A stretch of DNA of 64,000 nucleotides from a virus (Duplodnaviria > Heunggongvirae > Uroviricota > Caudoviricetes), in the IMG/VR virus record IMGVR_UViG_3300035698_009402, positions 51,659 to 115,658 of that record. The stretch is one strand, 5' to 3'. Each line of letters opens with the position of its first letter. Position 1 is the first letter of the stretch. This document shows positions 3,385-63,544 of the stretch, piece after piece. A program made the position numbers and the translations under genes. Under the pieces are notes generated by a model. It made no database searches and was not told the origin of the DNA. It saw nothing but the letters and a program-made list of their open reading frames with translations.

Positions 3385-3385
3385 C

Positions 3386-5131: not shown

Positions 5132-5225
5132 ATTTTCTCCTTTACTTCATATGTTTACTTGTATCTACATTGATACTATATTAAGTATATTTGTATTTTA
5201 ACCAGATTGCAAAATAAATTTTAAT

Positions 5226-5474
5226 TTATCTATCTTTTCGTATTTTTCTATAATGAGTCTGATCATCATTCTGCAACTTTTGTAGTCTTTCTTTACGTTC
5301 TTTAGCTACTCGTTTAGCACTTTGCAAATCTGCTAATCTTCTTTTTTGAGATTTACTAGTATAATACTTCTTATCCTTCATAGTTTGAAAGAAGTTTTCT
5401 TTTCCTAACTTTTTCATCAAAGATTTGTATGCTTTATTTACATTATTATTTCTTACTTTTACTTTCATATCCAT
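5226..5474 (-). CDS. rpsU: ribosomal protein bS21 homologue (phage-encoded)
   Basis: 82 aa very basic protein; KVKVRNNNVNKAYKSLMKKLGKE...KKYYTSKSQKRR aligns with the bS21 pattern (VxVRENE..AL.RFKR...EfYEKPS.rRKR). Confidence 0.5.
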   Translation of the reverse strand: MDMKVKVRNNNVNKAYKSLMKKLGKENFFQTMKDKKYYTSKSQKRRLADLQSAKRVAKERKERLQKLQNDDQTHYRKIRKDR

Positions 5475-5785
5475 CCAATTTCATATAAGGTCATTAGTAC
5501 TGTATCATTAGAAAATTTACCTTCTAGCTTAAATACTAGCTGTTCATTTTTTAAATATAAGAAAGTAGGGTATTTTGCTATAGAAAATTTATCGTCATAA
5601 ACTTTATTATTTACTTCAGTAGAAATTCCTAAACTTGCTAACTTATCCATTTCATATCTTACATATGTTTCTGTATTAGCATTGTAGTATCCTACTACTT
5701 TAGTTATATTTTTTTTTATTACTTTTATTTTAGACTTTTGCAAATCAGTTAAAGGTAATAGGTTTATTATAGAATCTTTATTCAT
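5465..5785 (-). CDS. hypothetical protein (thioredoxin-like fold? no CxxC)
   Basis: 106 aa ORF overlapping the bS21 gene start (ATGA); weak thioredoxin-like C-terminal pattern. Confidence 0.35.
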   Translation of the reverse strand: MNKDSIINLLPLTDLQKSKIKVIKKNITKVVGYYNANTETYVRYEMDKLASLGISTEVNNKVYDDKFSIAKYPTFLYLKNEQLVFKLEGKFSNDTVLMTLYEIGWI

Positions 5786-5834
5786 TATTTACTTTAAATA
5801 GTGTGGAAAACTATTTGTCTCCTTAAAATAAGAT

Positions 5835-5863
5835 TTGCTTACTTGCCAAAAATTTGTGATAAT
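5835..5863 (+). promoter_or_regulatory. sigma70-like promoter TTGCTT-N17-GATAAT at the divergence point between leftward and rightward gene blocks
   Basis: TTGCTT at 5835-5840, 17-nt spacer, GATAAT at 5858-5863; first rightward CDS at 5968. Confidence 0.4.
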
Positions 5864-5967
5864 TGTTTTATCGCAGTAATTTATACATTGTATAAAAAAA
5901 AGCTGCGTAAGGCAACCAGTTTTTTAAAAAATTTTTAAAACTGTTATTACAATTATCAGGAGAATAA

Positions 5968-6168
5968 ATGAATTATACTAAGCTATCAGAAGCTAAACAA
6001 TATTTTTACGCAGCTAGAGAACAAGAAATACCAATGGCTGTGGATATTCTAAATGACTATGAAGAATTACTTGACATGGGGCAAGATTTTGCGGCTAATC
6101 ATATGTTATTAGAAATTTATAAACAAGTATTACTAATTGAAAAGGATGATATTAATGTCAACACGTAA
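5968..6168 (+). CDS. hypothetical protein
   Basis: 66 aa; first rightward gene after the promoter at 5835; AGGAG-like RBS. Confidence 0.4.
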   Translation: MNYTKLSEAKQYFYAAREQEIPMAVDILNDYEELLDMGQDFAANHMLLEIYKQVLLIEKDDINVNT

Positions 6169-14987: not shown

Positions 14988-16598
14988 ATGAAAGTAGGTA
15001 TTGCACAATGCAATTTTGTTGTAGGGGATATCCCCGGCAACTATGAAAAAATAGTCAAAATTTGGGATGAGAAAGATAACGAAGATTTCGACGTTATTTT
15101 ATTTAGCGAGCTTTGCCTAACAGGTTATCCTGCACAGGATCTGCTGTTAGACAAGGCTTTTTTGTGTTTGGAGCGAGAATATCATTATAAATTACTTGCT
15201 AAACGTAATTATATGAAAACAAGCATTATTCTTGGATTATGCTTGTTGTCTCATACGTCTAAAATATATAATAGTGCTAATCTTATTTCTAATAAAGATT
15301 TAGGTAAAGCTATTGTAAAAACATATCTTCCTAACTATGATGTATTCGACGAAAAAAGATATTTCACTGGATATGGAATAAATGAGTACAATAATATCAT
15401 TGAAATAGTTGATAAAAAATTTGCAGTATTAATCTGTGAAGATGCTTGGGAAATAACTGACGAAGAATTACAAAAGTTATCTGGAGTATTTGGAATATTT
15501 ATCATTAATGCAAGTCCTTGGGATACTTCTAAAATCAACAATAGACTTAGATTAGCGAAGAAATTATCTAAGAAATTAGATTGTTTTGTGTTTTATGCAA
15601 ATCAAGTAGGTGGTCAAGATGAGTTAGTATTTGATGGTACTAGTTTCATTATGAATAACTTACAAGGTATTGAAGCTCAAGCTAAATCTTTTGAAGAAGA
15701 TTTTATTGAGTTAGATTTTAGTAAAACAAGCATTAAACATAATTACATGTTAGGGATAGGAAACTATTCTCAAATGCTAAGAAAAGCCTTAGTACTAGGT
15801 ACTCGCGATTATTTTAGAAAGAATAATTTTAATAAGGCAGTTATAGGTATTAGTGGTGGAGTTGATAGCGCCTTAGTTGCAGATATAGCTGTTGAAGCGT
15901 TGGGTGCAGAAAATGTTCTTGGAATTGGGATGATGACAAAATTTAATAGTCCTCTCACTTTAAAATTAGCTAGAGATTTATGCGTCCAACTAGGAATTAC
16001 TTATAAAGAAATGGATATTAGTAAAATCATTGACGTATTCAGTGATGAATTAGATTATTCCACAGTTGTTCCAAACTTAAAAATGAGCGGGGTACCTTAC
16101 GAGAACATCCAATCTCGAATTAGAGGAAACATTCTCATGGCGATTTCCAATTCACAAAATGCATTAGTATTAAGTACAGGTAATAAGTCAGAAGTGGCAA
16201 TGGGATATTCCACCCTGTATGGGGATATGGTAGGGGGATTTAATCCCTTAAAAGATGTATACAAAACAGATGTATTCAATTTATCTAGACTAAGCAATAA
16301 AATTCCTTCAGAGATTGTTACTAGACCTCCTACTGCGGAATTAGCAGAAAATCAATTAGATAGTGATAAATTACCTGAGTATAGTAAATTAGACGTTATA
16401 CTCAGTATGTATCTTGAAGGAAATAGTAATATTGAGCACGTTACCAGAAGTTATGGAAAAGAACTTGCAGAAAAAGTATATAAAAGCTTAATATTTAATG
16501 AGTATAAGAGACAACAGTCTTGTCCTGGTATTAGAGTTAGTACCAAACATTTGGGCAAAGACCGTCGTTTTCCAATCACTAATCAGTATAAAGGTTAA
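14988..16598 (+). CDS. nadE: glutamine-dependent NAD+ synthetase (N-terminal CN-hydrolase domain + C-terminal NAD synthase)
   Basis: 536 aa; PP-loop GISGGVDSALVA; N-terminal nitrilase-like domain; GGAG RBS. Confidence 0.8.
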   Translation: MKVGIAQCNFVVGDIPGNYEKIVKIWDEKDNEDFDVILFSELCLTGYPAQDLLLDKAFLCLEREYHYKLLAKRNYMKTSIILGLCLLSHTSKIYNSANLISNKDLGKAIVKTYLPNYDVFDEKRYFTGYGINEYNNIIEIVDKKFAVLICEDAWEITDEELQKLSGVFGIFIINASPWDTSKINNRLRLAKKLSKKLDCFVFYANQVGGQDELVFDGTSFIMNNLQGIEAQAKSFEEDFIELDFSKTSIKHNYMLGIGNYSQMLRKALVLGTRDYFRKNNFNKAVIGISGGVDSALVADIAVEALGAENVLGIGMMTKFNSPLTLKLARDLCVQLGITYKEMDISKIIDVFSDELDYSTVVPNLKMSGVPYENIQSRIRGNILMAISNSQNALVLSTGNKSEVAMGYSTLYGDMVGGFNPLKDVYKTDVFNLSRLSNKIPSEIVTRPPTAELAENQLDSDKLPEYSKLDVILSMYLEGNSNIEHVTRSYGKELAEKVYKSLIFNEYKRQQSCPGIRVSTKHLGKDRRFPITNQYKG

Positions 16599-16608
16599 GG
16601 AGATTAAA

Positions 16609-17796
16609 ATGAAATTAACAGAGCAAGAAATCGTAGAACGTACAGATAAATATTTTGTACGTACTAAAAAAGTAGTAGATCACTTCAATAAAGAAATTAT
16701 CGTAAAATATGCAGTATTTATGCGCACAGACGTTCTTGCTGCACTAAATCCTTGTATAGATTTTATTAAGGAACATTGTCCAGATGCTATTATTGAACGT
16801 AAGTTCAATGAGGGGGAGTTTGTTCCCAGTGAAAAGCCTATGATGCATATTACTGGAAAGTTTAGTGATCTAGTTATGTTAGAAACACTACTACTCCAGA
16901 AATTAGGTTTTACGTGTCTTTGTGCGTATAACGCTTATAATATGTCTAAAGCACTTCCACAAGTAGCGTTCATGGATATGCACGCACGTCATGGAACTGG
17001 TGAAGATATGAACCACCTTGCTACTTATGGATGTAGTGTTGGCAGTAAGGTAGCACAGCAAGAAGGTTCCGAAGGTTTTCTGGGAGGTGCGCAAGATATT
17101 ACTGCCAAATACTTCGATAAACTACACGGAATGGGTACTATGCCCCACGCTCTAGTAGGTCTTGCTAAAACTATGTTTCCAGAACGTAATAGTATGGTTG
17201 CAGCAGTTGAGATGTATCTAGAGGCTATGCCTGAAGAAACTAATATTGTAGCACTTGTAGATTATGATGGTAAAGAAATCACAGACGCTTTAGCAGTAGC
17301 CGACTATATGTTAAGTAATCATCCTGAAAAACAATTAAGCATTAGACTAGATACTCATGGTGGTAGATTCTGTGAAACATTAGATTATGCTTCAAGCGTA
17401 AATGTTGTTAGTCAACATATTAGTGATGGTAAAATGACTGAGTATGAAATTATCAGAACAGTTATGGGTGAGACTGCTTTTATGATGGATAGTAATAATA
17501 TTATTAAGGATAAGATCAGAAAGCTTATGTTTGGTACAGGAGTGTCTGCTGCAAACATTATTAATATGAGAAATTACTTGGATGGAGAGGGCTACAATGA
17601 TGTTAGTATTGTAGCGAGTAGTGGATTTGATGTAATCAAATGTGGAGTATTCCGTGAAGCAAACGTTCCAGTGAATATGATTGGTACAGGTAGTTTTCTG
17701 CCTAAGAAATATACTGAAACATATGCTACAGCAGATATTATCGAATATAATGGAATTAAGAGTGTTAAAGTTGGAAGGGAATTTTTAAATGACTAA
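16609..17796 (+). CDS. pncB: nicotinate/nicotinamide phosphoribosyltransferase-family enzyme (NAPRTase-like)
   Basis: 396 aa from ATG 16609 (AAGGAGA RBS); size and motifs consistent with type II PRTase of the NAPRT/NAMPT family; sits between nadE and Nudix/NMNAT. Confidence 0.6.
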   Translation: MKLTEQEIVERTDKYFVRTKKVVDHFNKEIIVKYAVFMRTDVLAALNPCIDFIKEHCPDAIIERKFNEGEFVPSEKPMMHITGKFSDLVMLETLLLQKLGFTCLCAYNAYNMSKALPQVAFMDMHARHGTGEDMNHLATYGCSVGSKVAQQEGSEGFLGGAQDITAKYFDKLHGMGTMPHALVGLAKTMFPERNSMVAAVEMYLEAMPEETNIVALVDYDGKEITDALAVADYMLSNHPEKQLSIRLDTHGGRFCETLDYASSVNVVSQHISDGKMTEYEIIRTVMGETAFMMDSNNIIKDKIRKLMFGTGVSAANIINMRNYLDGEGYNDVSIVASSGFDVIKCGVFREANVPVNMIGTGSFLPKKYTETYATADIIEYNGIKSVKVGREFLND

Positions 17797-21309: not shown

Positions 21310-21384
21310 GAATGTATAGTAGAATGGTTCTGCAACGGGCTTTTAATCCGCTCATAAGGGGTTCGATTCCTAGCGTGCCTGCCA
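21310..21384 (+). tRNA. tRNA-like element or pseudo-tRNA (Lys-UUU-like anticodon arm; acceptor stem does not pair)
   Basis: D-arm GTAG/CTGC, anticodon arm with CUUUUAA loop, GGTTCGATTCC T-loop and ...GCCA end, but 5'/3' acceptor strands are not complementary. Confidence 0.25.
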
Positions 21385-21453
21385 ATTTAAAGAGAGTTTA
21401 TAATGAAAAAATATGAAAGTCAGTTTTTCTAAGTATTAACTTAGGAGGACTAA

Positions 21454-28966: not shown

Positions 28967-29041
28967 AGTAGAGAATCCGATTGGCGAGGAACGCGCCTGA
29001 TTAGCGTGTGGTAGAGGGTTCGATTCCCTCCTCTACGACCA
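28967..29041 (+). tRNA. tRNA, anticodon loop CUGAUUA -> GAU (Ile?), pyrimidine at 37
   Basis: Acceptor AGTAGAG/CTCTACG (A1-G72 mismatch) + A + CCA; anticodon stem CGCGC/GCGTG; T-arm GAGGG-TTCGATT-CCCTC. Confidence 0.5.
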
Positions 29042-30914: not shown

Positions 30915-32135
30915 ATGTTACTTAGAGGAAAACACGCAGAAATTAAAACTTGGACAGAAGGTGTTCATTTGGACGGTAATACAGTAGGTCAGCTAATTAA
31001 GACCGCTAGTTTGCCTATAATTTATAAACATATTGCTGTGATGCCTGATGCTCATTTAGGTATTGGTAGTACTGTGGGTAGTGTTATTCCGACAATTAAA
31101 GCGATTATTCCTGCTGCTGTCGGGGTGGATATTGGTTGTGGCATGGTAGCTGTAAAAACTACTTTACATGCTGATGATTTACCTGATAGTTTAAAAGAAT
31201 TAAGAATGGAAATAGAAGCTAATATTCCTCATGGAGGTCCTGGCAAGAAGGGAAGTTGGGGAGATACTAGATATTCTAGTTGGGAACATCGTCCTACTAA
31301 TATTAGTGTTAAATCTAATAAATTTGCTAAGACTTTCTTAAATATTAGAAAGCATAATCAAATTGCTGAAGCAGATAAAAATAATGCTAGTACTCAATTA
31401 GGTACTTTAGGGAGTGGTAATCACTTCGTAGAAGTGTGTTTAGATGAAAAATCTAATGTATGGGTTATGCTACATAGCGGATCTAGGGGCATTGGTAATA
31501 GAATTGGAAGATACTTTATTCAGAAAGCTATTAGAGAATGTGAAAACTTAGATATTAAATTAGTTGATAGTAACTTAGCTTATTTAATAGAAGGTGGGAA
31601 GCATTTTGACGATTACATTGAAGGAGTTAATTGGGCACAGAACTATGCTGCTTTCAACAGAGAGATAATGATGGAGCAGGCTTTGTTATCTTTGAAAAAT
31701 ATCATAAAAGTACCTTTTACTTATGATGTTAAAGGAATTAATTGTCATCATAACTATGTAACTAAAGAGCGTCATTTTGGAGAAGATGTATATGTAACTA
31801 GAAAGGGAGCTGTTAACGCAGAATTCGGTAAGTTAGGTATTATTCCAGGAAGTATGGGTACTAAAAGTTATATTGTTAGAGGAAAAGGCAACGCTGATTC
31901 TTTTAATAGTTGCTCTCATGGGGCTGGTAGGGTATACTCTAGAAGTCATGCAAAGAAAAATTTCACTTTGGAAGATCATTTAAAAGCTACTGAAGGAGTA
32001 GAATGTCGTAAAGATATTGGAGTAATTGATGAAACTCCTGCTGCTTATAAGAATATAGATGAAGTAATGGCTGCGCAGACAGATTTAGTAGATATCGTAC
32101 ATACTTTAAAACAAGTTGTATGTGTGAAAGGATAA
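30915..32135 (+). CDS. rtcB: RtcB RNA 3'-phosphate/2',3'-cyclic phosphate ligase
   Basis: 406 aa; HSGSRGIGNRIG, CHHNYV, SCSHGAGR motifs typical of RtcB. Confidence 0.75.
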   Translation: MLLRGKHAEIKTWTEGVHLDGNTVGQLIKTASLPIIYKHIAVMPDAHLGIGSTVGSVIPTIKAIIPAAVGVDIGCGMVAVKTTLHADDLPDSLKELRMEIEANIPHGGPGKKGSWGDTRYSSWEHRPTNISVKSNKFAKTFLNIRKHNQIAEADKNNASTQLGTLGSGNHFVEVCLDEKSNVWVMLHSGSRGIGNRIGRYFIQKAIRECENLDIKLVDSNLAYLIEGGKHFDDYIEGVNWAQNYAAFNREIMMEQALLSLKNIIKVPFTYDVKGINCHHNYVTKERHFGEDVYVTRKGAVNAEFGKLGIIPGSMGTKSYIVRGKGNADSFNSCSHGAGRVYSRSHAKKNFTLEDHLKATEGVECRKDIGVIDETPAAYKNIDEVMAAQTDLVDIVHTLKQVVCVKG

Positions 32136-33199: not shown

Positions 33200-33216
33200 A
33201 AATTAAAAATTTACAT

Positions 33217-33245
33217 TTGCTTTAAGCAGTAAATTTTAATATAAT
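33217..33245 (+). promoter_or_regulatory. promoter TTGCTT-N17-TATAAT driving the tmRNA
   Basis: Exact consensus; predicted TSS ~33252 at the start of the GC-rich tmRNA region. Confidence 0.55.
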
Positions 33246-33251
33246 AATGAA

Positions 33252-33665
33252 AGTGACGTTGAGGAAATATTTGTTGAAACAAATTGAACGATAGACAACA
33301 CCTCGGGGCAGTACCGAGCGCCTCCACCACGAACACACATTCGGGTCGTAATATCGGATAGATATACTTCGAGTGTTGCTCTGATAGGTCGCAGAATGTG
33401 TGTTTTTGATGGGGGCGAAATAGAATCGACTGATATTTATTAGGTAAGTTGAGAATATTTTTTAGTCACTACGATAAACGCAAATGATAATACTTCATAT
33501 GCAATGGCTGCGTAAGTAGTCAAGCGGGGTCAGTAGCCGTACCTAGCACCAGAAATCGGCTACATTTATAATAACTCATATGGCCAGTATTTAGCAATGC
33601 GCTATCGAAGGGGCCACTCTGTCTGACAGCAGGGAAGAAATATTTGTCAAAATATTTAGATATTG
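33252..33665 (+). ncRNA. ssrA: two-piece (circularly permuted) tmRNA precursor: acceptor piece ending CCA at 33329, intervening segment 33330-33410, coding piece from 33411 with tag ORF 33480-33515 (A)NDNTSYAMAA*
   Basis: Consensus promoter 33217-33245; T-arm CTCGG-GGCAGTA-CCGAG + CGCCTCC + A + CCA at 33302-33329; downstream GGGGGCGAAATAGAATCGAC (tmRNA 5' acceptor motif, complementary to CGCCTCC); GCA AAT GAT AAT ACT TCA TAT GCA ATG GCT GCG TAA tag frame; intervening ACACACATTC/GAATGTGTGT helix; GC-rich, ORF-free; 3' boundary approximate. Confidence 0.6.
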
Positions 33666-37109: not shown

Positions 37110-37184
37110 GTCTTTGTAGCATTATGGTAATGCGTCCGCCTCTAAAACGGAAGAAAACGGGTTCAATTCCTGTCAAAGACACCA
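37110..37184 (+). tRNA. tRNA with anticodon loop CUCUAAA -> CUA (candidate amber suppressor); alternative fold has a 9-nt loop
   Basis: Acceptor GTCTTTG/CAAAGAC + A + CCA; D-arm GCAT/ATGC; anticodon stem TCCG/CGGA with a C-A closing mismatch; T-arm ACGGG-TTCAATT-CCTGT. Confidence 0.5.
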
Positions 37185-40235: not shown

Positions 40236-40309
40236 GTTGGTCTAGTGTAATGGCAACACGACTGCTTCCAAACCAGTAGATGTGGGTTCGATTCCTACGA
40301 CCTTCGCCA
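40236..40309 (+). tRNA. tRNA-Trp (anticodon CCA)
   Basis: Anticodon arm ACTGC-TTCCAAA-CCAGT like E. coli tRNA-Trp; T-arm GTGGG-TTCGATT-CCTAC; G + CCA; acceptor has two U-U mismatches. Confidence 0.6.
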
Positions 40310-40325
40310 ACAAGAAAGGGCTAAA

Positions 40326-40475
40326 ATGGATTATTATATTTACAGGAAACAAGATGGAAAATTAGTTTCATTTATTGAACGTAAGAATAAATCTAAAAAA
40401 GAATATATAGCTTTAAGGGAAAAACTAAGAGACAATGAAGAAGATTTTTATTTCTTCACTAAAGGAATTTAAGGG
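40326..40475 (+). CDS. small hypothetical protein (49 aa)
   Basis: ATG 40326 with an AAGGG RBS after tRNA-Trp. Confidence 0.3.
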
Positions 40476-40517
40476 TTTGTTGTGGGTTGTTTTATATAAA
40501 CCAATCCTCATTATTTT

Positions 40518-41177
40518 ATGACATATAGATTATTAGATTTATTTTCAGGACCAGGAGGTTCGGCAGTAGGATATAATAATGCAGGATTTTCTGAAATAGT
40601 GGGAGTAGACACAGAAAATATATCTAAATATCCTTTTGAGTTTATTAATAAGGACGTATTTTGCTTAGATATAGATTTTATGAAATCTTTCGATTTTATA
40701 CACGCTAGCCCACCTTGCCAAGCATATAGTAGCGGAAGTATATCGGCTAGAAAAAAGGGAAAAGAATATCCAGATTTAGTAGCGCCTACCAGAGAATTAT
40801 TAAACAGTTTAAATATTCCTTATATTATAGAAAATGTACCTAATGCTCCTTTAATTAACCCCACGGTATTGTGTGGAACTCAATTTGATTTACGAGTTTT
40901 TAGGCATAGATTGTTTGAAAGTAACATAAGAATTTATGGCAAGGGGAAATGCAGTCATAAAGGGCTAAAAGTTAGTTACAGGGAAAACGATGGCGGTAAT
41001 ATGTTTGGAGTTGCTGGCCATCAGTACGGTAATAAAGAACAATGGAATCAAGCTATGGGCGGACAATTATCTTTTATTGCTAGTAAAAGATTAATGGCTC
41101 AGGTAATACCTCCTGCATATACCGAATTTTTAGGTATGCAGGTTATTAAGTATTTGGAGAGTAAACCTGTAGGGTGA
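40518..41177 (+). CDS. DNA (cytosine-5)-methyltransferase (compact)
   Basis: Motif I LDLFSGPGG, motif IV PPCQAYS (PCQ catalytic Cys), motif VI ENV (YIIENVPN); 3' end overlaps tRNA-Ser(GGA) by ~22 nt. Confidence 0.6.
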   Translation: MTYRLLDLFSGPGGSAVGYNNAGFSEIVGVDTENISKYPFEFINKDVFCLDIDFMKSFDFIHASPPCQAYSSGSISARKKGKEYPDLVAPTRELLNSLNIPYIIENVPNAPLINPTVLCGTQFDLRVFRHRLFESNIRIYGKGKCSHKGLKVSYRENDGGNMFGVAGHQYGNKEQWNQAMGGQLSFIASKRLMAQVIPPAYTEFLGMQVIKYLESKPVG

Positions 41178-41242
41178 CAGGCGCGTCTTGGAAAGGCGTA
41201 GGGCGTTAAGTCGCTGGGGATCGAGACCTCTGCTCTCCGCCA
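41156..41242 (+). tRNA. tRNA-Ser (anticodon GGA), type II, unusual T-loop AUCGAGA
   Basis: Same acceptor (GGAGAGU/GCUCUCC) and T-arm as tRNA-Ser at 22711; anticodon arm GCGTC-TTGGAAA-GGCGT; 5' end overlaps the methyltransferase stop. Confidence 0.6.
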
Positions 41243-41247
41243 ATAAC

Positions 41248-41322
41248 GCTTTTGTAGTATAATGGATATTACACGGTCTTGGTAAGACTGAAATCAGAGT
41301 TCGATTCTCTGCTGGAGCACCA
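41248..41322 (+). tRNA. tRNA-Thr (anticodon GGU)
   Basis: Anticodon arm CGGTC-TTGGTAA-GACTG; T-arm CAGAG-TTCGATT-CTCTG; acceptor GCTTTTG/CTGGAGC + A + CCA. Confidence 0.65.
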
Positions 41323-41342
41323 TTTAAAAGAAAGGCTAAAAA

Positions 41343-41612
41343 ATGTCTATTATGTACTTAGAACAAGAGATACTCATATTTTCTAATATTCTAGAAGATA
41401 TACAGTTGATTGAAGATAAAGAAGATGCTAAAGCAGTTAATAGAATTTATCGGAAGAGATTTGATAATTTATGGACAATATTTAATTCTCACTGTGGTGA
41501 AATGAATAATTTAAGAAAAGCTAATGAAATATTAATAGATGAAATAACTAAAGAAAAGTTAAAAGTTACAGAACAAGAATTGTGGGTAGACCCACTAAAT
41601 AAAATAGAATAG
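41343..41612 (+). CDS. hypothetical protein
   Basis: 89 aa ORF. Confidence 0.4.
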   Translation: MSIMYLEQEILIFSNILEDIQLIEDKEDAKAVNRIYRKRFDNLWTIFNSHCGEMNNLRKANEILIDEITKEKLKVTEQELWVDPLNKIE

Positions 41613-41777
41613 TTACCGTATTAGGAAGTAGCGTCAACTGCTCCTATGTAGTTCTAGAAACTAAAGTTTGACGACTTGAAAGCACACAGGACTCATACTC
41701 CTGCAGAGAGGAAGGTAGTTTCCCCTCACCTGCTGTAAAGCGGGGAAGTGTAACTGAGCAAGGTAATAACTAAATTA

Positions 41778-41853
41778 GGGGGCAGGGCATGTGTACCCGG
41801 AGGTTCCTTGCAAGAACCTAGCCTGGAGGGTTAGAGTCCCTCTGTCTCCACCA
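41778..41853 (+). tRNA. tRNA-Ala (anticodon UGC) with G3-U70
   Basis: Acceptor GGGGGCA/TGTCTCC (G3-U70 identity pair) + A + CCA; anticodon arm GGTTC-CTTGCAA-GAACC; T-arm GAGGG-TTAGAGT-CCCTC. Confidence 0.7.
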
Positions 41854-41859
41854 TATTAA

Positions 41860-41934
41860 TGAAGGATCTTCTAACGGTAGGAAACCTGGCCTTGAACCAG
41901 GATAATGTGGGTTCGAATCCTACTCCTTCATCCA
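41860..41934 (+). tRNA. tRNA-Gln (anticodon UUG), U1-A72
   Basis: Acceptor TGAAGGA/TCCTTCA + T + CCA; anticodon arm CCTGG-CCTTGAA-CCAGG; T-arm GTGGG-TTCGAAT-CCTAC. Confidence 0.6.
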
Positions 41935-41940
41935 ATTAGC

Positions 41941-42014
41941 TGCTCTGTAGTGTAATGGTAGCACGCAATACTCTGAATGTTGTAATTCTGGTTCGATCCC
42001 AGAGAGAGCATCCA
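41941..42014 (+). tRNA. tRNA-Gln (anticodon CUG), U1
   Basis: Acceptor TGCTCTG/GAGAGCA + T + CCA; D-arm GTGT/GCAC; anticodon arm CAATA-CTCTGAA-TGTTG; T-arm TCTGG-TTCGATC-CCAGA. Confidence 0.65.
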
Positions 42015-42224
42015 ATTAGGTAATTAAATATTACCAAAGGAGAACATGGCCAAACGATATATACCCTCTCAAGTTAAGTTAACTAATACTTTAACGTATG
42101 ACCATCAAACTAGTCATGAAGGTAAGTTCTTCTTTATTAGTAGTAAATGGGATAGCATAGCTAATTCTCACGGCATAACTGCTGGAGATTTAAATTTAGT
42201 AATAACATACTATAATATAAATTA

Positions 42225-42782
42225 ATGATAATCAATATTGTAATATGGTCAATACTTACTTTAGTACCTTTAATACCTACTATAATTCTTTTTAAAATGT
42301 TTGAGAGTAGTGCTAGTTTTCAAGATATGAAAAAAGGCATCAAATTAGGTGGAGCGGCTGCTGCTTATTTTATATTAGTAGGTTTTGCGTTCACTAGTTG
42401 GTATGGGCTACAAGAACCTATAATAGATCAACAATCCATTATAAAAGAAGATTTATCAGGTATTTGGACTTGTGAGTATACTTTTAAGATAAAAGAAGAA
42501 TTAGTAACAGGTACTGGTACTATGTATATTTTATTGGATGAAAATAATAATATAGTAATTCACGGTCAAGATAGCAGTGGAATTAATTGGGAATCTAGTC
42601 AAGTATTATTAAACTCTAACAAGATGATTTTTATATTCAATAGTAATTTAACTAACAATTTAGGAATTACTTGGATAAATTTTGTAGTTAAAGAAGATAA
42701 AATAACTGATTTCATAGGTAATTGGGTTATTGTTAGTGATAATAATTTAAAAGGAAGTATAGTCTGCCATAGTTCCTTATAA
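42225..42782 (+). CDS. membrane-anchored hypothetical protein
   Basis: Two N-terminal TM helices then a beta-rich domain. Confidence 0.45.
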   Translation: MIINIVIWSILTLVPLIPTIILFKMFESSASFQDMKKGIKLGGAAAAYFILVGFAFTSWYGLQEPIIDQQSIIKEDLSGIWTCEYTFKIKEELVTGTGTMYILLDENNNIVIHGQDSSGINWESSQVLLNSNKMIFIFNSNLTNNLGITWINFVVKEDKITDFIGNWVIVSDNNLKGSIVCHSSL

Positions 42783-42783
42783 T

Positions 42784-42857
42784 GCGGGTATAGCGTAAAG
42801 ATAACGTGATTGGTTGCCAGCCAGTAGTTCTGAGTTTGAGTCTCAGTGTCCGCGCCA
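42784..42857 (+). tRNA. tRNA-Gly (anticodon GCC); its 3' 18 nt are part of the 109-bp direct repeat
   Basis: Acceptor GCGGGTA/TGTCCGC + G + CCA; anticodon arm ATTGG-TTGCCAG-CCAGT; T-arm CTGAG-TTTGAGT-CTCAG. Confidence 0.75.
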
Positions 42858-42948
42858 TTTGAGTAAAAGTAAAAAAAAATAAAGATTGCTATAAAGGGTT
42901 AATTATAGTATTATATCTTTAGAAATTAAAAAAAGGAAGAAATTTTTG
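42840..42948 (+). repeat. 109-bp direct repeat, copy 1 (includes the 3' 18 nt of tRNA-Gly-GCC)
   Basis: GTCTCAGTGTCCGCGCCATTTGAGTAAAAGTAAAAAAAAATAAAGATTGCTATAAAGGGTTAATTATAGTATTATATCTTTAGAAATTAAAAAAAGGAAGAAATTTTTG; identical to 43542-43650 by eye. Confidence 0.7.
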
Positions 42949-43019
42949 GGACCTATATACGTAGCTAGCCATGTAGCAATTTGTGCTTAGGGCGCGTATA
43001 TAGTGGGTAGGAGGCTAAA

Positions 43020-43490
43020 ATGTCAGCGCAAACGGTTGCCGACGATATTCTGAAAATCGCAAAGCGGCGTGGGATGAAATTGACACCCATGCAACTGATG
43101 AAGCTCGTCTACATATCTTACGGTTGGTATCTCGCGATGCACAACGCAAAGCTGTTCAATGATCGCATTGAAGCTTGGAAGTATGGCCCCGTGATTCCAA
43201 ATCTTTATCAAGCAACTAAACGGTTTGGAAAAAATGAAATCCCCTCGGAGATGGTCGCGGATAGCCCTATCAACAACCAGAGCATGGAGCCATTTTACGA
43301 AAGTATCGTTGAGAATTACGGGAAATATTCTGGGATTGCCCTTTCAAACCTGACACACAGGCAAGGGACACCTTGGCATAAAGTATTCCAGCCCCCCGTG
43401 ATGGGTATTGAGATTCCTGACCCATTAATCCTTGAACATTATCAGCAGGGCCTCGATGCAAGACAAGCCACCACCACCGCCACCATCTGA
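43020..43490 (+). CDS. Panacea-domain (DUF4065, GepA/SocA-like) protein in a GC-rich insertion
   Basis: DILKIAKRRGMKLTPMQLMKLVYISYGWYLAMHNAKLFNDRIEAWKYGPVIPNLY matches DUF4065 (KLQKLLYyaqgw...LF.e.ieAWk.GPVvp.vY); GC ~50% vs ~30% around it. Confidence 0.5.
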   Translation: MSAQTVADDILKIAKRRGMKLTPMQLMKLVYISYGWYLAMHNAKLFNDRIEAWKYGPVIPNLYQATKRFGKNEIPSEMVADSPINNQSMEPFYESIVENYGKYSGIALSNLTHRQGTPWHKVFQPPVMGIEIPDPLILEHYQQGLDARQATTTATI

Positions 43491-43541
43491 ATGGGCCGAG
43501 GGCGAAGAGTGGAAACAGGATGCCGAAGCCAAGGCTGAAAG

Positions 43542-43650
43542 GTCTCAGTGTCCGCGCCATTTGAGTAAAAGTAAAAAAAAATAAAGATTGCTATAAAGGG
43601 TTAATTATAGTATTATATCTTTAGAAATTAAAAAAAGGAAGAAATTTTTG
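43542..43650 (+). repeat. 109-bp direct repeat, copy 2 (carries a duplicated tRNA-Gly 3' fragment)
   Basis: Perfect copy of 42840-42948 located 702 bp downstream. Confidence 0.7.
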
Positions 43651-43700
43651 TGGATTGAATATTGGTCTTATGTAGGCTTTATGTATTTAGTAAGTTTTGA

Positions 43701-43775
43701 ACAACTAATCGCGGGTATGGTATAAAGGTAGTGCCTCAGCCTTCCAAGCTGATGAAGACCGGTTCGAGTCCGGCT
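43701..43775 (+). tRNA. tRNA-Gly (anticodon UCC)
   Basis: Acceptor GCGGGTA/TACCCGC + T + CCA; anticodon arm TCAGC-CTTCCAA-GCTGA; T-loop TTCGAGT. Confidence 0.7.
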
Positions 43776-43804
43776 ACCCGCTCCAATTAATAAAGGGTTA
43801 AAAT

Positions 43805-44209
43805 ATGCTAACAAGGTTAGATTTTTTAGAAATGGAAGAAGTAAACGTTTCTAAACTAAGTAGTTATGAAGGATATTGGTATTTAGCAAGTCCTTTTGCA
43901 GGGTTAGATAGAAAACAAGCATTAAATCTAGTAGCAGAAGCTACTTTTCATCTATTAAAAGAGAGAATTTTTGTTTGGTCGCCAATTTTGCATACTTCAT
44001 CAATTGACGATAATTATAGTGAAAGTAATGAAGAATTAGGCTGGAATCATTCAGATTTTTTAAAGTATGATGCTAGTTTGATGAAACATGCGCAAGGATG
44101 TATATTAATTAATAACGAACAATCATTAAATTCTAAAGGTATGTTTAGTGAATATTGTTATTTTAAAAATACTATGAAACCTTGCTTTAAGTATACAATG
44201 CTCGCTTAG
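43805..44209 (+). CDS. hypothetical protein
   Basis: 134 aa; its TAG stop overlaps the first nt of tRNA-Val. Confidence 0.45.
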   Translation: MLTRLDFLEMEEVNVSKLSSYEGYWYLASPFAGLDRKQALNLVAEATFHLLKERIFVWSPILHTSSIDDNYSESNEELGWNHSDFLKYDASLMKHAQGCILINNEQSLNSKGMFSEYCYFKNTMKPCFKYTMLA

Positions 44210-44273
44210 TTTAATGGCAGAACGACGTCTTTACACGGCGTATACGATGGTTCGATTCCTTCAGTGAGTACCA
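44200..44273 (+). tRNA. tRNA-Val (anticodon UAC)
   Basis: Acceptor GCTCGCT/AGTGAGT + A + CCA; anticodon arm ACGTC-TTTACAC-GGCGT; T-arm GATGG-TTCGATT-CCTTC. Confidence 0.7.
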
Positions 44274-44289
44274 ATTTAAGAGGCTAATT

Positions 44290-44690
44290 TTGAAAAATAA
44301 GCATAAGAAGATAGTTAAGGATTTGGTCGGGTACATAAGTGCTCGACCTTTTTGTGTCGGAAATGCAAGAGTTGCTGCCTGTATAATCTATAAAAACAGA
44401 GTTTTTATGGGGAAAACAGGAGAAAAACAGGTACTACTACTCTTAAGTATTTTAAAGAGTATAGCATTTTTCTCCATGCAGAGGTAGACGCTATTAAAAG
44501 AGCAAGTAAAGTTTTGACTGATGAAGAACTTCAAAAAGCTACTTTGTACATAATAAGGGTTCACAAGAACGGTAAATTGGCTCTAGCCCGGCCATGCAAA
44601 AAAGGGTGTCAACAGTTGATTAATGCCTATGGTATTAAAACTGTAATTTATACAACAGATACGGGATTACAAAAGTTGACAAATATGTGA
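44290..44690 (+). pseudogene. cytidine/dCMP deaminase-like gene split by a -1 frame change (pseudogene, sequencing error or programmed frameshift)
   Basis: Frame A gives the N-terminus (VGNARVAACIIYKNRVFMG); frame A-1 (open from 44394) continues with HAEVDAIKRA ... PCKKGC zinc-binding deaminase motifs; the shift lies in the A-rich run GGGGAAAACAGGAGAAAAACAGG (~44405-44435). Confidence 0.4.
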
Positions 44691-44718
44691 CTAACAATTC
44701 CGTAGTCAGGAGATAAAA

Positions 44719-44856
44719 ATGTTTAGTAAGTTAATCAAAAGATTTCAAGAAAATAGAACTATGTCAGCATTGAATAGTTTAGACGACGCTACCTTAAAAG
44801 ATATAGGTATTCACAGAAGTGAAATCCCTTCTTTGGCAAGAAATCTGAATAAATAA
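44719..44856 (+). CDS. DUF1127-family small protein (45 aa)
   Basis: C-terminal LNSLDDATLKDIGIHRSEIPSLAR matches the DUF1127 signature (L.D..L.DIGL.R.dI), a family abundant in alphaproteobacteria. Confidence 0.4.
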   Translation: MFSKLIKRFQENRTMSALNSLDDATLKDIGIHRSEIPSLARNLNK

Positions 44857-44914
44857 GTAGGATAAGCCCTAGGTAGCTATGCTCCTAGGGTTTTCCATTT
44901 GTGTAAATAAAAAT

Positions 44915-44943
44915 AAATTCTATTTGCTTTGAAGAGTTTTTTA
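44915..44943 (+). promoter_or_regulatory. promoter TTGCTT-N17-TATTAT
   Basis: Upstream of the CDS at 44999. Confidence 0.45.
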
Positions 44944-44998
44944 AACTATTATACAAGTAATCCAAGGAAAACCTTTATTAGAGAGAGAGAAGTTTTAT

Positions 44999-45466
44999 AT
45001 GACTAAAGAAGAATTTAACAAATATATGACAGAAATTCATAATGAAATTGAGTTATATATTAAAAATAATATGTTAATAGGATATTCCTGTGAGTTAAGA
45101 TTAGATTGGTCTGTACGCAGACGTAGAAGTAACGGCGGTAAGGCAGTTAAATCTGGTAAAATTGGTGTTAGTTATGCTATGGTTGTTTTAAATTCTAGAA
45201 TAAACTCACTACAGTTTAATGAGTATCCTAGCTTTAGCAAGGATATCCATATAGGAAGTATTACTACTACTGATTGGAAAGATATTTGTCTGTTAATTAG
45301 CTGCCATGAACAGGCTCACGCATTTAGAGCCGCTAAAGTAGGTGGTAATATCGACGGTCACAATAAAGAATGGAAAGCAGCTTATAAACAGTTGAGAGAG
45401 AAGTTTTTAAACAGTAATGATACTATAACCAGTAAAGGTCAAGTATCTGATAAAATATCTAATTAA
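44999..45466 (+). CDS. HExxH zinc-metallopeptidase-like small protein
   Basis: LISCHEQAHAF motif; TTGCTT-N17-TATTAT promoter at 44915. Confidence 0.45.
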   Translation: MTKEEFNKYMTEIHNEIELYIKNNMLIGYSCELRLDWSVRRRRSNGGKAVKSGKIGVSYAMVVLNSRINSLQFNEYPSFSKDIHIGSITTTDWKDICLLISCHEQAHAFRAAKVGGNIDGHNKEWKAAYKQLREKFLNSNDTITSKGQVSDKISN

Positions 45467-45686
45467 GATCATTATGTAGAAAGTTTTAATAAACATGCTT
45501 ACACCAAGGGAGTAAATAGAAATTTTGCTGTGGGAGATACAGTTTGTTACACTCCTGAAAAAGCTGAATTTACATTGATAGGGTTTAATAAAAGAGGCTA
45601 CAAATATCCTATTATACTAAAAAATGAATCTATAAATAGATTGTTTAAAGTAGCTATAGGAGATTTAAATATGATGGTGAAAATAA

Positions 45687-45896
45687 ATGACAGCAGATAA
45701 TGTAGGTAAAATACTAGGATCGGTGTTTTTAATAGGAGTAGTTTTATTCGCTGTTTTTAATTTTAAAGCTTTTATGGCTACTGTTATAGTAATTATAGGT
45801 GTAGTTAGTTTAATAGCTATCTATAGCGGAGTAAGTAACGTAACTAAAGGCGTTATTAATAGAAACACACGATACAATGATCGTCATGATGACTAA
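45687..45896 (+). CDS. small membrane protein
   Basis: 69 aa, two TM helices. Confidence 0.4.
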   Translation: MTADNVGKILGSVFLIGVVLFAVFNFKAFMATVIVIIGVVSLIAIYSGVSNVTKGVINRNTRYNDRHDD

Positions 45897-45922
45897 AACA
45901 ACTTATAAAGATAGGAAAACAA

Positions 45923-47302
45923 ATGATTCAACAGAAAACAATTAAAAAATTAGGTATTTGGGGTGGTGTAGGGTTAATTTCTTTAATCGCTCTAAATAGC
46001 GCTTATTTTAGCACTAGTGAGGGTTATTTATACTATGTACAAAATAAGTTAACAGGAACTACTGAAGTATATAGTGAACCCGGAGTTCATCTTAAGATGC
46101 CTCTTTTTACAAATGTATACGAATATAAGAGAGTAGCGACTATTGATGCTACTACTAATCCGGGAGATTTTACACGTAAACTGCCTGCTATTAGTGTTAC
46201 TTTTGCTGATACTTATACAGGCGAAGTTCCAGCTACTTTTAGGTATAGATTACCTACTGATCCTGAAAACTTCAAGAAACTTCATCAAGAGTTTAGAAGT
46301 TTCTCTAATTTAGTGGATGCTTTATTAGTACCTAATAGTAAGAATGTTGCTGTAGTAACCGCTACACAATACACTGGTGAAGAATTTATTCAAGGCGGAG
46401 TAAATAGATTCAAAGCTCAGATGGAAGATCAATTAAATGAAGGTCTATATGTAACTAAAAGAGAGCAGGTGTCTGTTACAGATTCAGGTTATGCCCCTGT
46501 ATCTAGTACTAATTCTAATGCTAATCTAGTAGAAACACAGACTAGACTAGTATGGAAAAATGTAGTAAAATTAGAAGTTAAAACAGGTCAGCCTAAGAGA
46601 TTAGAAAATCCTATTACTGAATATGGTATTACTTTAGCCCAAGTTACTATTGGTAAGCCTATTCCTGACGAACAACTTAATTCTCTATTACAAAATAAAA
46701 GAATCCAAGTTGGTGAGAAAATTACTGCTCAACAGGAAATTGAAACCAATGCTACAAAAGCAGAAGCAGCTAAACAAGAACGTGAAATTGTAAAGCAAAA
46801 AGCTATCCAGGATGCTCAAAAAGATAAAGAGTTAGCGATTATTGCAGAACAACTACTTGTAGATGTTGAAAGACAAAGAGCTATTAAAGAACTTGTTGCA
46901 CAACAAAAAGAAAAAGACGTAGCAGTAATTCAGAAAGAAAAAGAGCAAGCAATTGCTGTAGCTAACCGAGGTATTCAGCAAGCTAACGCAGAAGCAGCTA
47001 AGTTTGAAGCACAGGCTATTCTAGAAAAAGGTTTAGCAGAGGCAAGGGTAGCAGATGCTCAATTACAGGCTAAGCAAAATAACAAAGATATTTATATGGC
47101 TGAAATAGAGAGAGATATTGCTAGATCTCTATATGGTAATCTAGCTAATTTTAAGGTAGAAATGCCTTATAATGTTATTATGAACGGTTCTGCAAAAGGA
47201 ACTTCTTTACCTAGTAACCTAGATGTATTAACTCAATTTGGTACTTTAGGGATTATGAAGAACCTAGAAGAAAGAAGTAAGAAAGTAGAGGTATCTGAAT
47301 AA
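45923..47302 (+). CDS. SPFH/Band-7 (flotillin/HflKC-like) membrane protein with long coiled coil
   Basis: N-terminal TM LGIWGGVGLISLIAL, SPFH-like core, then ~150 aa of Q/E/A/K-rich heptads (EAAKQEREIVKQKAIQDAQKDKELA...). Confidence 0.6.
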   Translation: MIQQKTIKKLGIWGGVGLISLIALNSAYFSTSEGYLYYVQNKLTGTTEVYSEPGVHLKMPLFTNVYEYKRVATIDATTNPGDFTRKLPAISVTFADTYTGEVPATFRYRLPTDPENFKKLHQEFRSFSNLVDALLVPNSKNVAVVTATQYTGEEFIQGGVNRFKAQMEDQLNEGLYVTKREQVSVTDSGYAPVSSTNSNANLVETQTRLVWKNVVKLEVKTGQPKRLENPITEYGITLAQVTIGKPIPDEQLNSLLQNKRIQVGEKITAQQEIETNATKAEAAKQEREIVKQKAIQDAQKDKELAIIAEQLLVDVERQRAIKELVAQQKEKDVAVIQKEKEQAIAVANRGIQQANAEAAKFEAQAILEKGLAEARVADAQLQAKQNNKDIYMAEIERDIARSLYGNLANFKVEMPYNVIMNGSAKGTSLPSNLDVLTQFGTLGIMKNLEERSKKVEVSE

Positions 47303-54621: not shown

Positions 54622-55095
54622 AAAAAGAAATGGCGCGTGTGCCAGAAGATTATGGTGACATAATTCAAAGGGATAAGTCCTTCCCGTGTTACTGCAAAGT
54701 AGCATAAAGCACGCAAGTCCCAATTTGTCGATGAACCAATCATCGAAGTATCGGTTAAAACGGTACTAGGGGCAGACAGTTAAGTAGATAGTTCTTTGGT
54801 AAGAATGTGGTGTAGGTAATACTGGCATCTAATAGGAGGTGGAACTCCGGCTAACAATCCAACTTAACAAAAGCTGACTTAATAAGGGATAGATACGGCG
54901 ACAGTCCTTGATTGTCTCAATAATGTGCGAGTGATAATAAACGAGTGCGAGTATCAATATTAGAGGTATACGTTAGAAGCGCAATCTTAAAATATAGTTG
55001 AGTAGGTGGATAACTGAAAAGCATGAGGTGTGTAGTATTTTGTACCTAACAAGGTATGAAGCGACAGAGGTAGCACATCTTTCGGCACATAACCC

Positions 55096-55171
55096 TTGCG
55101 GGTAGGCTAACGGTATAGCCATTTGTCTTTGAAACAAACGTATGCGGGTTCGATCCCCGTTTCGCAAACCA
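55096..55171 (+). tRNA. tRNA-Gln (anticodon UUG), U1; isolated inside the ORF-poor block
   Basis: Acceptor TTGCGGG/TTCGCAA + A + CCA; D-arm GGCT/AGCC; perfect anticodon arm TTTGT-CTTTGAA-ACAAA; T-arm GCGGG-TTCGATC-CCCGT. Confidence 0.65.
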
Positions 55172-55501
55172 TAAAAAACGCAAAGACTACCTCGATAAAT
55201 AACGAAAGTGCTTTAATGCAACACCGTAAGGAATGTTGTCGCTCAAAGATCGCAAGTTGGAGAGTGTTATTAGTACGAAAATCATAAGAGTTAGCGACTC
55301 CTAACAGCTGTAAAAGGTTGATGAAAATAGGACTAATGAGTAGTTATTTATGACAGTGCGCAAGCGATGCACTTTAAAAAACGAAAGCATAGAAGATAGA
55401 TAGTCAGCGGAAGCGGTTATCTGGATAAGCAAGGAACCTCGTAAGGGATAATCTTGTTAAGACTTCTACTAAAAGGTATAATCTCAGCCTTTATTAAAAG
55501 A

Positions 55502-60717: not shown

Positions 60718-60966
60718 ATGTCTGAAGATTACAAGACAGCCTTAGCATACTTTATTAAGTCAGACGAAGCATCTATGGATACTAGACAAGCCTTTCTAAA
60801 ATTATCCAATAAAGAATACGAGACAAGAGTAAAAGTACAGATGATTGAGATAGGTAAACATTTTTGGTATTCTAACACGGTTACAAAAAGAAGAAGTATT
60901 GATTCTAAAAATATAGAAGTTGTTGATACTGAAAGGAAACAAATTGTTAACACAAACGCAGTTTGA
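60718..60966 (+). CDS. hypothetical protein
   Basis: 82 aa ORF. Confidence 0.4.
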   Translation: MSEDYKTALAYFIKSDEASMDTRQAFLKLSNKEYETRVKVQMIEIGKHFWYSNTVTKRRSIDSKNIEVVDTERKQIVNTNAV

Positions 60967-61267
60967 TAAATAGGTAACGAAGTTACGTTCCGGGGAGTAC
61001 AAACAAGGAATAGAATATCTTAATAGGGATAACAGGTATTGTTATTTGGGGGTTTTAGCTGAAACACTAGAATTACCTAAGAAAAATGTAGGTTATATAA
61101 CTTATTATAAAATATCTGAAGAAAAAGAAGTAGTGGTGGATTTAGAAAGTAAGTGGCTTACAGAAAGTATGGAGAGAGAATTAGTAGGATTAAACGACAG
61201 AGATAGAAAATCTTTTAACTATATAACAGATTGGCTAGAAAGGAATAAGAGTGAGATAGTAAGATGA
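60944..61267 (+). pseudogene. paralog of the 63224-63544 gene with an in-frame TAG replacing the conserved Trp codon (pseudogene or amber-readthrough gene)
   Basis: TTG-LTQTQFDK-TAG-VTKLRSGEYKQG...YCYLGVLAETL vs the paralog MLTQTQFNKWVTKLRSGEYKQG...YCSLGVLAETL; TAG at 60971-60973 aligns with TGG; the ORF track only calls 61046-61267. Confidence 0.35.
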
Positions 61268-63224: not shown

Positions 63225-63544
63225 TGTTAACACAAACGCAGTTTAATAAATGGGTAACGAAGTTACGTTCCGGGGAATACAAACAGGGACGAACAAGATT
63301 ATTGAATGATAATTGTTATTGCAGTTTAGGAGTATTAGCTGAAACTCTTAATTTATCTAAAAGAAGAAGTATTATTTTTACAGAAACCTACTTATTCGAA
63401 AATGATGCTATTAGTTTAAGTATAAGATATGTACCTAAATCTTGGCAAGAAATATTAATTCGTATGAATGATAAACAAGGTAAGTCTTTTTCAGAAATCG
63501 CAGATTTTTTAGAGGAAAATAAAAAAGAATATGTACAAAATTGA
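63224..63544 (+). CDS. hypothetical protein (intact paralog of 60944-61267)
   Basis: 106 aa; N-terminal 40 aa about 80% identical to the upstream paralog. Confidence 0.45.
   Translation: MLTQTQFNKWVTKLRSGEYKQGRTRLLNDNCYCSLGVLAETLNLSKRRSIIFTETYLFENDAISLSIRYVPKSWQEILIRMNDKQGKSFSEIADFLEENKKEYVQN

Follow-up and report, generated by a model that had tools for sequence, protein, structure and literature searches.

What route brings an antitoxin gene, shorn of its toxin, into a phage genome, and why should such a gene lie between two copies of the end of a transfer RNA (tRNA) gene? These questions are raised by a locus in IMG/VR virus record IMGVR_UViG_3300035698_009402, a member of the Caudoviricetes, of which positions 51,659 to 115,658 were analysed (64,000 nucleotides, referred to here as the window and numbered from its first letter). 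At this locus an insert carries panA, an intact gene for an antitoxin-type protein of the Panacea (DUF4065) family. The explanation that we regard as probable for the locus as a whole is that the insert is a transposon-derived fragment containing panA, that its right junction was formed through microhomology, and that the product of the gene has an anti-toxin role.

Much of the initial annotation of this locus, which was made from the sequence alone, holds. It had described perfect 109-bp direct repeats, the first of which starts inside tRNA-Gly(GCC), and a repeat search indeed finds two copies (R1 and R2; Table 1) that are 100% identical at an offset of 702 nt and that form the sole long perfect direct repeat within the window. 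ARAGORN and Rfam both place tRNA-Gly(GCC) at 42784-42857, so that R1 opens with its final 18 nt. The GC-rich 593-bp insert between the copies is also real, with 48.4% GC against 31.2% for the whole window, and it is the only island above 42% GC that is not a tRNA cluster. Its gene matches PF13274 over the whole domain, and no recombinase domain is found in the insert or in the neighbouring open reading frames (ORFs), as the annotation had said of integrases. In the reconstructed empty site, which reads tRNA-R-GTGGATTG, the tRNA-Gly(UCC) gene lies 151 nt past tRNA-Gly(GCC). The final G of the repeat (42948/43650) is probably fortuitous: the transposon end opens with a G, and the base that comes next in the phage itself happens to be a G as well, so that the event as such would have duplicated 108 nt.

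The left border of the insert is where a transposon end is found. Homology to related cassettes begins at 42945-42948, which is the exact border between repeat and insert, and a left terminal inverted repeat (IRL) of the IS1595 family there immediately follows the A/T-only 8-mer AAATTTTT, which also closes R2. This IRL is identical at 22 of 22 positions to that of four viral contigs (L002-L005), and at 19 of 22 to those of three cassettes in Rhodobacterales (L008, L009 and L010). Elements of the IS1595 family are known to produce A/T-rich 8-bp duplications (PMC12561309). The junction sits exactly at the tip of the inverted repeat, and this implies that a transposase made the left end. The window holds one end only: the IRL is a single occurrence even with up to 3 mismatches allowed, so that no right inverted repeat (IRR) is present, and tblastn with the transposase of L008 finds no IS1595 transposase in the window, nor is there a RhuM gene. 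The 8-bp target duplication is likewise not present in the window, and a duplication of 108/109 nt is found instead.

The contexts of PanA matches show that cassettes sharing these ends form a family around Rhodobacterales and viral relatives of panA. The fullest of them, in Phaeobacter inhibens CP010745 (L008), carries panA (155 amino acids), an ORF of 116 amino acids that overlaps panA by 32 nt, a RhuM-family gene and a DDE_Tnp_IS1595 transposase with domains PF12760/PF12762. The RhuM-family gene matches the PADLOC candidate defence system PDC-S05 (E 2.5e-104), and this full IS1595-type element amounts to a transposable defence island of small size. A second cassette (L012) lies in a viral contig next to an S24-type repressor gene, in the company of a RecT-like gene, and its 116-amino-acid gene is intact. 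The third type is the closest relative of the insert (91% nucleotide identity), a toxin-less panA mini-element of 658 bp that sits between major head and scaffold-like genes in a podovirus-type structural module of 60% GC with tail tubular proteins. It was found in the four contigs L002-L005, which come from four SRA runs (SRR15322234/240/243/246). The insert is 91.4% identical to L002 over 42948-43507, and 76% identical to L008 and a further relative, L006, up to 43553. This colinearity supports the view, already offered by the initial annotation, that the insert is foreign and the remnant of a larger mobile element. No match to the insert was found by blastn against phages or against PLSDB plasmids, and an exact-pattern scan of JGI metagenomes for the IRL gave none either.

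The 116-amino-acid partner of panA is itself a conserved family, with 35 clusters of 114-118 amino acids encoded on the same contigs as the panA matches. Its N-terminus is charged and rich in proline, and by hydropathy residues 55-80 and 93-111 (approximate limits) form two hydrophobic segments. The validated PanT clusters described by Kurata et al. (2022, PMC8832971) are membrane-disrupting, and the same authors remark that PanAT loci are often near transposases. Since its architecture matches that of these validated clusters, the partner is regarded here as a putative PanT. The two-gene layout is present in L006-L009 and in L012 (32-nt overlap, and co-occurrence on many contigs), and of the second gene the window keeps only a stump of 28 codons. 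From these comparisons IS1595-family cassettes appear to move panA together with the overlapping membrane-protein gene, panT, among marine Rhodobacterales and their phages. The likeness to PanAT type II toxin-antitoxin modules (PMC8832971) lies in the full Panacea domain, in relatives that are bicistronic with a small partner of charged N-terminus and hydrophobic C-terminus, and in the association with transposases and prophages. The window is unlike these modules in that its putative toxin gene is cut after about 28 codons, leaving the antitoxin alone, and in that the partner is a family for which neither Pfam nor PADLOC offers a model; PanA, too, is without one in PADLOC.

What, then, happened at the right border? 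Using the L008 partner as a query, tblastn matches the window at 43489-43554 (73% identity, E 4.6e-6), in a truncated gene, panT', that lacks both hydrophobic segments of the native protein. The earlier statement that no toxin partner is present is thus inexact, since a 5' stump of the toxin gene survives in the ORF at 43456-43584. Colinearity with native panT extends to 43553, and the right edge of the insert is inside panT at codon 29. At this point the window, the tRNA and native panT have a short sequence in common, a 13-mer that matches panT of L009 at 12 of 13 positions. When L009 panT is compared with the 1 kb that precedes the insertion point, no exact match is longer than AGTCTCAGTG, and past codon 28 the native gene of L009 reads GAGAAGTCTCAGTGGCCGGAC, the window GAAAGGTCTCAGTGTCCGCGC and the tRNA TTTGAGTCTCAGTGTCCGCGC. 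The right border of the insert is ambiguous across 43541-43554 because of this microhomology, and it is because panT has this stretch in common with the T-arm and acceptor of the tRNA that R2 starts within tRNA sequence. The alignment implies that the right junction would have arisen by microhomology-mediated illegitimate recombination. It is worth adding that the T-arm of tRNA-Gly(GCC) is unusual (CTGAG-TTTGAGT-CTCAG, with a T-loop UUUGAGU against the usual UUCGAAU of other phage tRNAs), and that this atypical arm is the source of the microhomology. A donor element is predicted to have (A/G)GTCTCAGTG(G/T)CC as panT codons 29-33 and an IRL starting GGGACCTATATACG, and under this model its left end would be expected to open with GGGACCTATATAC.

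Phage DNA replicates as many copies, and a history in two steps could make use of this. In the first step, an infected cell would carry the element, and the panAT cassette would transpose into AAATTTTT, 91 nt past tRNA-Gly(GCC) in the 151-nt spacer between the two tRNA genes. In the second, panT of the interrupted genome would join the 3' end of tRNA-Gly(GCC) of a second, uninterrupted genome via the microhomology. Everything rightward of about codon 29 of panT would thereby be discarded (the membrane segment of the toxin, the transposase and the right end), and a duplication of 108(+1) nt would be left behind. We infer that this is the most economical history, as its product, A-R-IRL-panA-panT'-R-B, reproduces every observed base, down to the 8-mer that closes R2 and the coincidental extra G. 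A one-step variant, in which an aberrant one-ended transposition is resolved when the template is switched at this microhomology, would give the same product.

Four other routes were considered and rejected. A long staggered-cut duplication of the target would have to span 108 bp, and to our knowledge no transposase makes duplications of that size. A surrogate right end in the style of ISEcp1 would need matching 8-bp flanks, and those seen are AAATTTTT and GTCTCAGT. A backward template switch on a single genome, like an unequal exchange between two insert-bearing sisters, would retain the complete element and its toxin. The insert was also not derived from the L002 mini-element, since the window keeps more of native panT (28 codons against about 15, with different sequence downstream). 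The differing truncation points mean that the toxin was lost independently in the two.

That the insert is the left arm of a passenger-carrying transposon of the IS1595 family, joined to the phage by the mechanism described above, is in our judgement very likely. It is like other members of the family in having one of the inverted repeats that open with GGG(G), abutting an A/T 8-mer; its relatives have the DDE_Tnp_IS1595 transposase (L008), such inverted repeats, mostly A/T-rich 8-bp duplications and passenger genes. It is unlike them in having a single end, no transposase and a duplication of 108/109 nt, and is thus an immobile fragment. IS1595 elements with passenger genes are known from two sources, PMC4611040 (citing Siguier, Gagnevin & Chandler 2009) and PMC12561309 (for ISApl4). 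A second group of relevance here are miniature inverted-repeat transposable elements and mobile insertion cassettes, which L002-L005 (658 bp) and L012 (1141 bp) resemble in having both inverted repeats and 8-bp duplications, within viral contigs. The copy in the window has no right inverted repeat, and therefore cannot be mobilised in trans.

The panA gene is intact. It scores 64.2 bits against PF13274 SocA_Panacea (cut-off 25.7, E 2.5e-17) over profile positions 1-113 of 113, and it matches phrog_1281 with an E value of 7e-38. It is 84% identical to a protein of Phaeobacter inhibens, 79% to one of Pseudooceanicola and 66% to one of Roseobacter, and up to 92% to unnamed marine metagenomic proteins. 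Phages commonly carry Panacea genes: homologues occur in 157 INPHARED records, mostly of temperate phages, at no more than 54% identity to PanA of the window. The ratio of nonsynonymous to synonymous substitution rates against its relatives is 0.04-0.28, and the panA family is under purifying selection. Expression of the solo gene would probably use the ribosome-binding site of the cassette itself, of which GGAG is conserved in the cassette alignment, and a promoter-like site in the duplicated phage sequence. A second copy of this sigma-70-like motif (43588-43616, in R2) is supplied to the downstream tRNA. Such sites are no more frequent in the region than shuffling would lead one to expect, which makes the motif weak evidence for a promoter.

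For the role of a solo PanA, a tentative proposal is that it would bind and neutralise the cognate PanT of hosts that carry panAT, and so block toxin-mediated abortive infection; by analogy with other phages this is plausible, if somewhat short of an even chance. The proposal fits because two independent truncations dropped the toxin and kept the antitoxin, both in lytic-type contexts (the window at about codon 29, L002 at about codon 15), and the temperate-type L012 keeps the pair. Precedents for phage antitoxins are AdfB of ICP1, which acts against DarTG (PMC11481870), a DarG2-like antitoxin of a chimallivirus (PMC13309987) and, as cited in PMC8832971, Dmd of T4. With these the window has in common a virulent-type phage with an antitoxin-type gene and no toxin, and a predicted logic in which a host toxin is neutralised on infection. 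It differs from them in that the gene belongs to the Panacea family, in that its route of capture is legible from the transposon end, the stump of the toxin gene and the junction at the microhomology, and in that it is known from sequence alone.

Several points weigh against the explanation given here. The toxicity of PanT and its neutralisation by PanA are putative in this subfamily. The phage, at 31% GC, is far from typical Rhodobacterales. The true donor is absent from the databases, where the best match is 91% at the nucleotide level, and the donor's microhomology sequence is deduced from relatives; the match at the junction is 12 of 13 for L009 and only about 10 of 13 for L006 and L008. 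In detail, the two-step and one-step routes cannot be separated, as both give the observed product and the chemistry of IS1595-family transposition is poorly characterised. The left junction, as well as the linkage of both junctions on a single molecule, rests on one assembly, and the databases searched yielded no relative of the phage in which the site, empty or occupied, could be seen. Finally, an insertion that is very recent, and possibly transient and neutral to selection, would fit the unameliorated GC content and the identity of the repeats.

This last point leads to the alternative that survives best, namely that the structure is real and the gene useless: recent transposon debris in a permissive tRNA spacer, on its way to being lost via the 109-nt repeats. 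Both the GC content (48% against 31%) and the complete identity of the repeats point to a recent event, phages tolerate insertions of insertion sequences poorly (PMC3429520), and no related phage in the databases searched shows that the gene is retained. Yet what was removed (the membrane segment of the toxin, the transposase and other cargo) is exactly the harmful or useless portion, and nothing is missing from the antitoxin ORF, its leader or its ribosome-binding site. Another phage-type contig, seen in four samples, has a panA cassette that lost the toxin independently at another truncation point, and a viral contig of temperate type has both genes of the pair intact. The insert-bearing form itself is found in at least two assemblies. 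We consider mere debris unlikely on balance, while granting it appreciable weight.

Could the arrangement be an artefact of assembly? In this case the phage would have a single copy of the repeat, and the insert would be a chimera, or a separate circle of 702 bp (repeat plus insert) that was threaded into the phage as a loop in the assembly graph. A loop on a shared node of 109 nt does give the same graph as a true integration. A 632-bp MEGAHIT contig (L001, ENA ERZ27315400) is 100% identical to window positions 43019-43650, a stretch that takes in panA, the toxin stump, the right junction and the whole of R2; it stops exactly where R2 ends, as it would at a graph branch. A contig of a sister sample (L011, ERZ27315435), 100% identical to 40266-41317, also breaks inside tRNAs. 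The ends of both contigs fit branching of a de Bruijn graph and are silent on coexisting empty-site or circular forms. The exact ends of L001 were not read as evidence for a circle, because at low coverage branching at the repeat explains them. Against an artefact, the identity of the two contigs shows that the phage occurs in several samples and that the right junction, which recurs in a second assembly from another sample, was assembled independently. The left junction is the exact tip of an inverted repeat beside an A/T 8-mer, and the right one an in-frame microhomology of 12/13, neither of which is a signature of random chimeras. The sequence shared at the junctions is far below any assembler k-mer, so that k-mers spanning the junctions must exist in the reads, and a circle with 109 nt of phage spacer could arise only by excision from an integrated copy. 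An artefact is therefore quite improbable.

A search for the empty site in related phages, which the initial annotation had proposed as a check, was run over INPHARED, IMG/VR and the JGI metagenomes; neither an empty nor an occupied site was found. Positions 41000-46000 have no megablast match among INPHARED phages. When scanned for exact patterns, IMG/VR gave no match to the repeat or to panA, and the JGI metagenomes none to the repeat, and IMG/VR scans seeded with two neighbouring phage proteins returned no related phage. By exact-protein look-up, nine window proteins were absent from the record and only the C5-methylase was matched. In these searches no contig across the left junction or the empty site was found.

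The weakest alternative takes the locus for a miniature integrative element that targeted the 3' end of tRNA-Gly and was moved by a recombinase acting in trans, with the repeats as attL and attR, as the initial annotation had suggested; although the duplicated segment begins in the T-arm, a classic target region of integrases, and the composition of the insert is unlike its surroundings, this is contradicted by a left border at the tip of an inverted repeat, a right border that cuts a gene intact in native copies, and cassette ends elsewhere, and we hold it to be very improbable indeed. Neither the insert, whose sole complete gene is panA, nor its neighbourhood encodes an integrase. Of the 109 repeat bases, 91 are phage-specific, AT-rich spacer, which is not expected of an att site borne by an element. 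In L002, L008 and L012 the same cassette occupies three unrelated sites that are not tRNA genes, each time with inverted repeats of 23 nt and a duplication of 8 bp; altogether, in four other genomic contexts such inverted repeats and duplications, and not tRNA sequence, form its boundaries. Similarity between cassette and tRNA is limited to a 13-nt stretch inside panT, and it is this microhomology, not targeting by a recombinase, that brought the tRNA into the arrangement. What the window shares with tRNA-targeting integrative elements is a partial tRNA 3' end duplicated across a foreign insert; it is unlike them in having no recombinase, a repeat that is mostly not tRNA, a junction in a truncated gene, and a cassette with transposon ends elsewhere.

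The phage around the transposon fragment is a novel marine one, is AT-rich in this region and carries 30 tRNA genes as well as genes for RtcB, NadE, a C5 methylase and sugar modification. The region has no DNA match in INPHARED, PLSDB, IMG/VR or the JGI metagenomes, and isolated phages show only distant protein similarity (at most 38% identity). Matches of NadE and of a prohibitin-like protein are 30-38% identical and are spread over phages of Vibrio, Ralstonia, Acinetobacter and others, which gives no host signal. A two-piece (permuted) transfer-messenger RNA (tmRNA) of the alphaproteobacterial type suggests that the phage host may be alphaproteobacterial; its tag frame is ANDNTSYAMAA*, and ARAGORN made no call there. 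NadE with an adjacent ORF (14988-17796) and RtcB (30915-32135) are candidates for counter-defence through restoration of NAD+ and repair of tRNA, respectively. Within the former stretch, 16498-17796 resembles the quinolinate phosphoribosyltransferase N-terminal domain weakly, with a score below threshold. The tRNA genes are densely arrayed, 29 of the 30 in the window lying at 21221-44273, where they are interleaved with small ORFs. One of them (37110-37184) has a CUA anticodon (amber suppressor) and is labelled Pyl by ARAGORN. Rfam adds a tRNA at 28967-29038 that ARAGORN missed, and a tRNA-like 3' end without a called gene lies at 21357-21389. A further direct repeat, of 65 nt, is found at 60945-61009 and 63225-63289 (94% identical, 2.3 kb apart), at ORF boundaries among small genes.

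Table 1. Features of the locus, of the surrounding phage region and of related cassettes elsewhere. Positions of the related cassettes are those of their own sequences, all others those of the window.
Feature	Position	Strand	Remarks
tRNA-Gly(GCC), intact	42784..42857	+	ARAGORN; Rfam tRNA 51.7 bits; last 18 nt open R1
Repeat copy 1 (R1)	42840..42948	.	18 nt of tRNA 3' end and 91 nt of phage spacer
Sigma-70-like motif TTGCTA-N17-TATTAT in R1	42886..42914	+	Now upstream of panA; putative function
A/T-only 8-mer AAATTTTT	42940..42947	.	Presumed transposition target site; abuts transposon end
Left terminal inverted repeat (IRL) GGGACCTATATACGTAGCTAGCC, 23 nt	42948..42970	+	IS1595-family cassette end
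Foreign insert	42949..43541	+	Colinear with left arm of Rhodobacterales panAT cassettes
Ribosome-binding site AGGAGG	43009..43014	+	5 nt before panA start
panA, intact, 156 amino acids	43020..43490	+	Panacea/DUF4065 antitoxin-type; PF13274, phrog_1281
panT', stump of partner (putative toxin) gene, 42 codons	43456..43584	+	Codons 1-28 native; rest from duplicated tRNA fragment and spacer
Right-junction microhomology GTCTCAGTGTCCG	43542..43554	+	Matches tRNA 42840-42852 and L009 panT GTCTCAGTGGCCG
Repeat copy 2 (R2)	43542..43650	.	Holds 18-nt tRNA 3' pseudo-fragment and second promoter-like motif
tRNA-Gly(UCC), next phage gene	43711..43785	+	ARAGORN
Two-piece (permuted) alphaproteobacterial tmRNA	33213-33564	+	Rfam RF01849, 85 bits, E 1e-21; also RF04321
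GOLLD RNA	55023-55490	+	RF02032, 169.7 bits, full-length model; tRNA-Gln(UUG) embedded at 55096-55171
L008, Phaeobacter inhibens CP010745	7927-10890		Perfect 23-nt inverted repeats GGGGCCTATATACTTAACTAGCC; 8-bp duplication TAAAATTT
L012, IMG/VR viral contig, 65% GC	4923-6063		1141-bp IRL-panA-panT-IRR; perfect 8-bp duplication TTTCGCAA
L002 (also L003-L005)	3171-3828		658-bp IRL-panA-stump-IRR, non-autonomous; 8-bp duplication CAAAAAAA
L009/L010, Rhodobacterales and Sulfitobacter metagenome-assembled genomes			IRL about 50 nt upstream of panA

Phage-borne antitoxins that act against toxin-antitoxin defence are already known, as are passenger-carrying IS1595 elements. What is new is the combination of an antitoxin-only transposon fragment in a virulent-type, tRNA-rich phage with a legible route of capture, and with a parallel antitoxin-only mini-element in another phage. 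The locus also shows that integrase-mediated, tRNA-targeted integration cannot be deduced from the mere fact that foreign DNA lies next to a second copy of a tRNA 3' end. A wider and more doubtful idea, which we rate slightly below even the debris alternative, is that IS1595-type panAT cassettes are mobile anti-phage modules of marine Alphaproteobacteria (for abortive infection or addiction) that phages have repeatedly disarmed in a stereotyped way. Cassettes would transpose in and the toxin would then be deleted, leaving antitoxin-only units of which some, such as the 658-bp IRL-panA-IRR unit, would be mobilisable in trans, and the window would be a fresh and independent example in a virulent-type, tRNA-rich phage. 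If this were true, such mobilisable units would serve as anti-defence cassettes, passed from phage to phage by transposition. How phages obtain antitoxins is rarely visible, and here the route of acquisition can be read base by base. Transposon-borne toxin-antitoxin cassettes may be a recurrent supply of counter-defence genes to phages, and Panacea antitoxins may also act as stand-alone anti-toxins.

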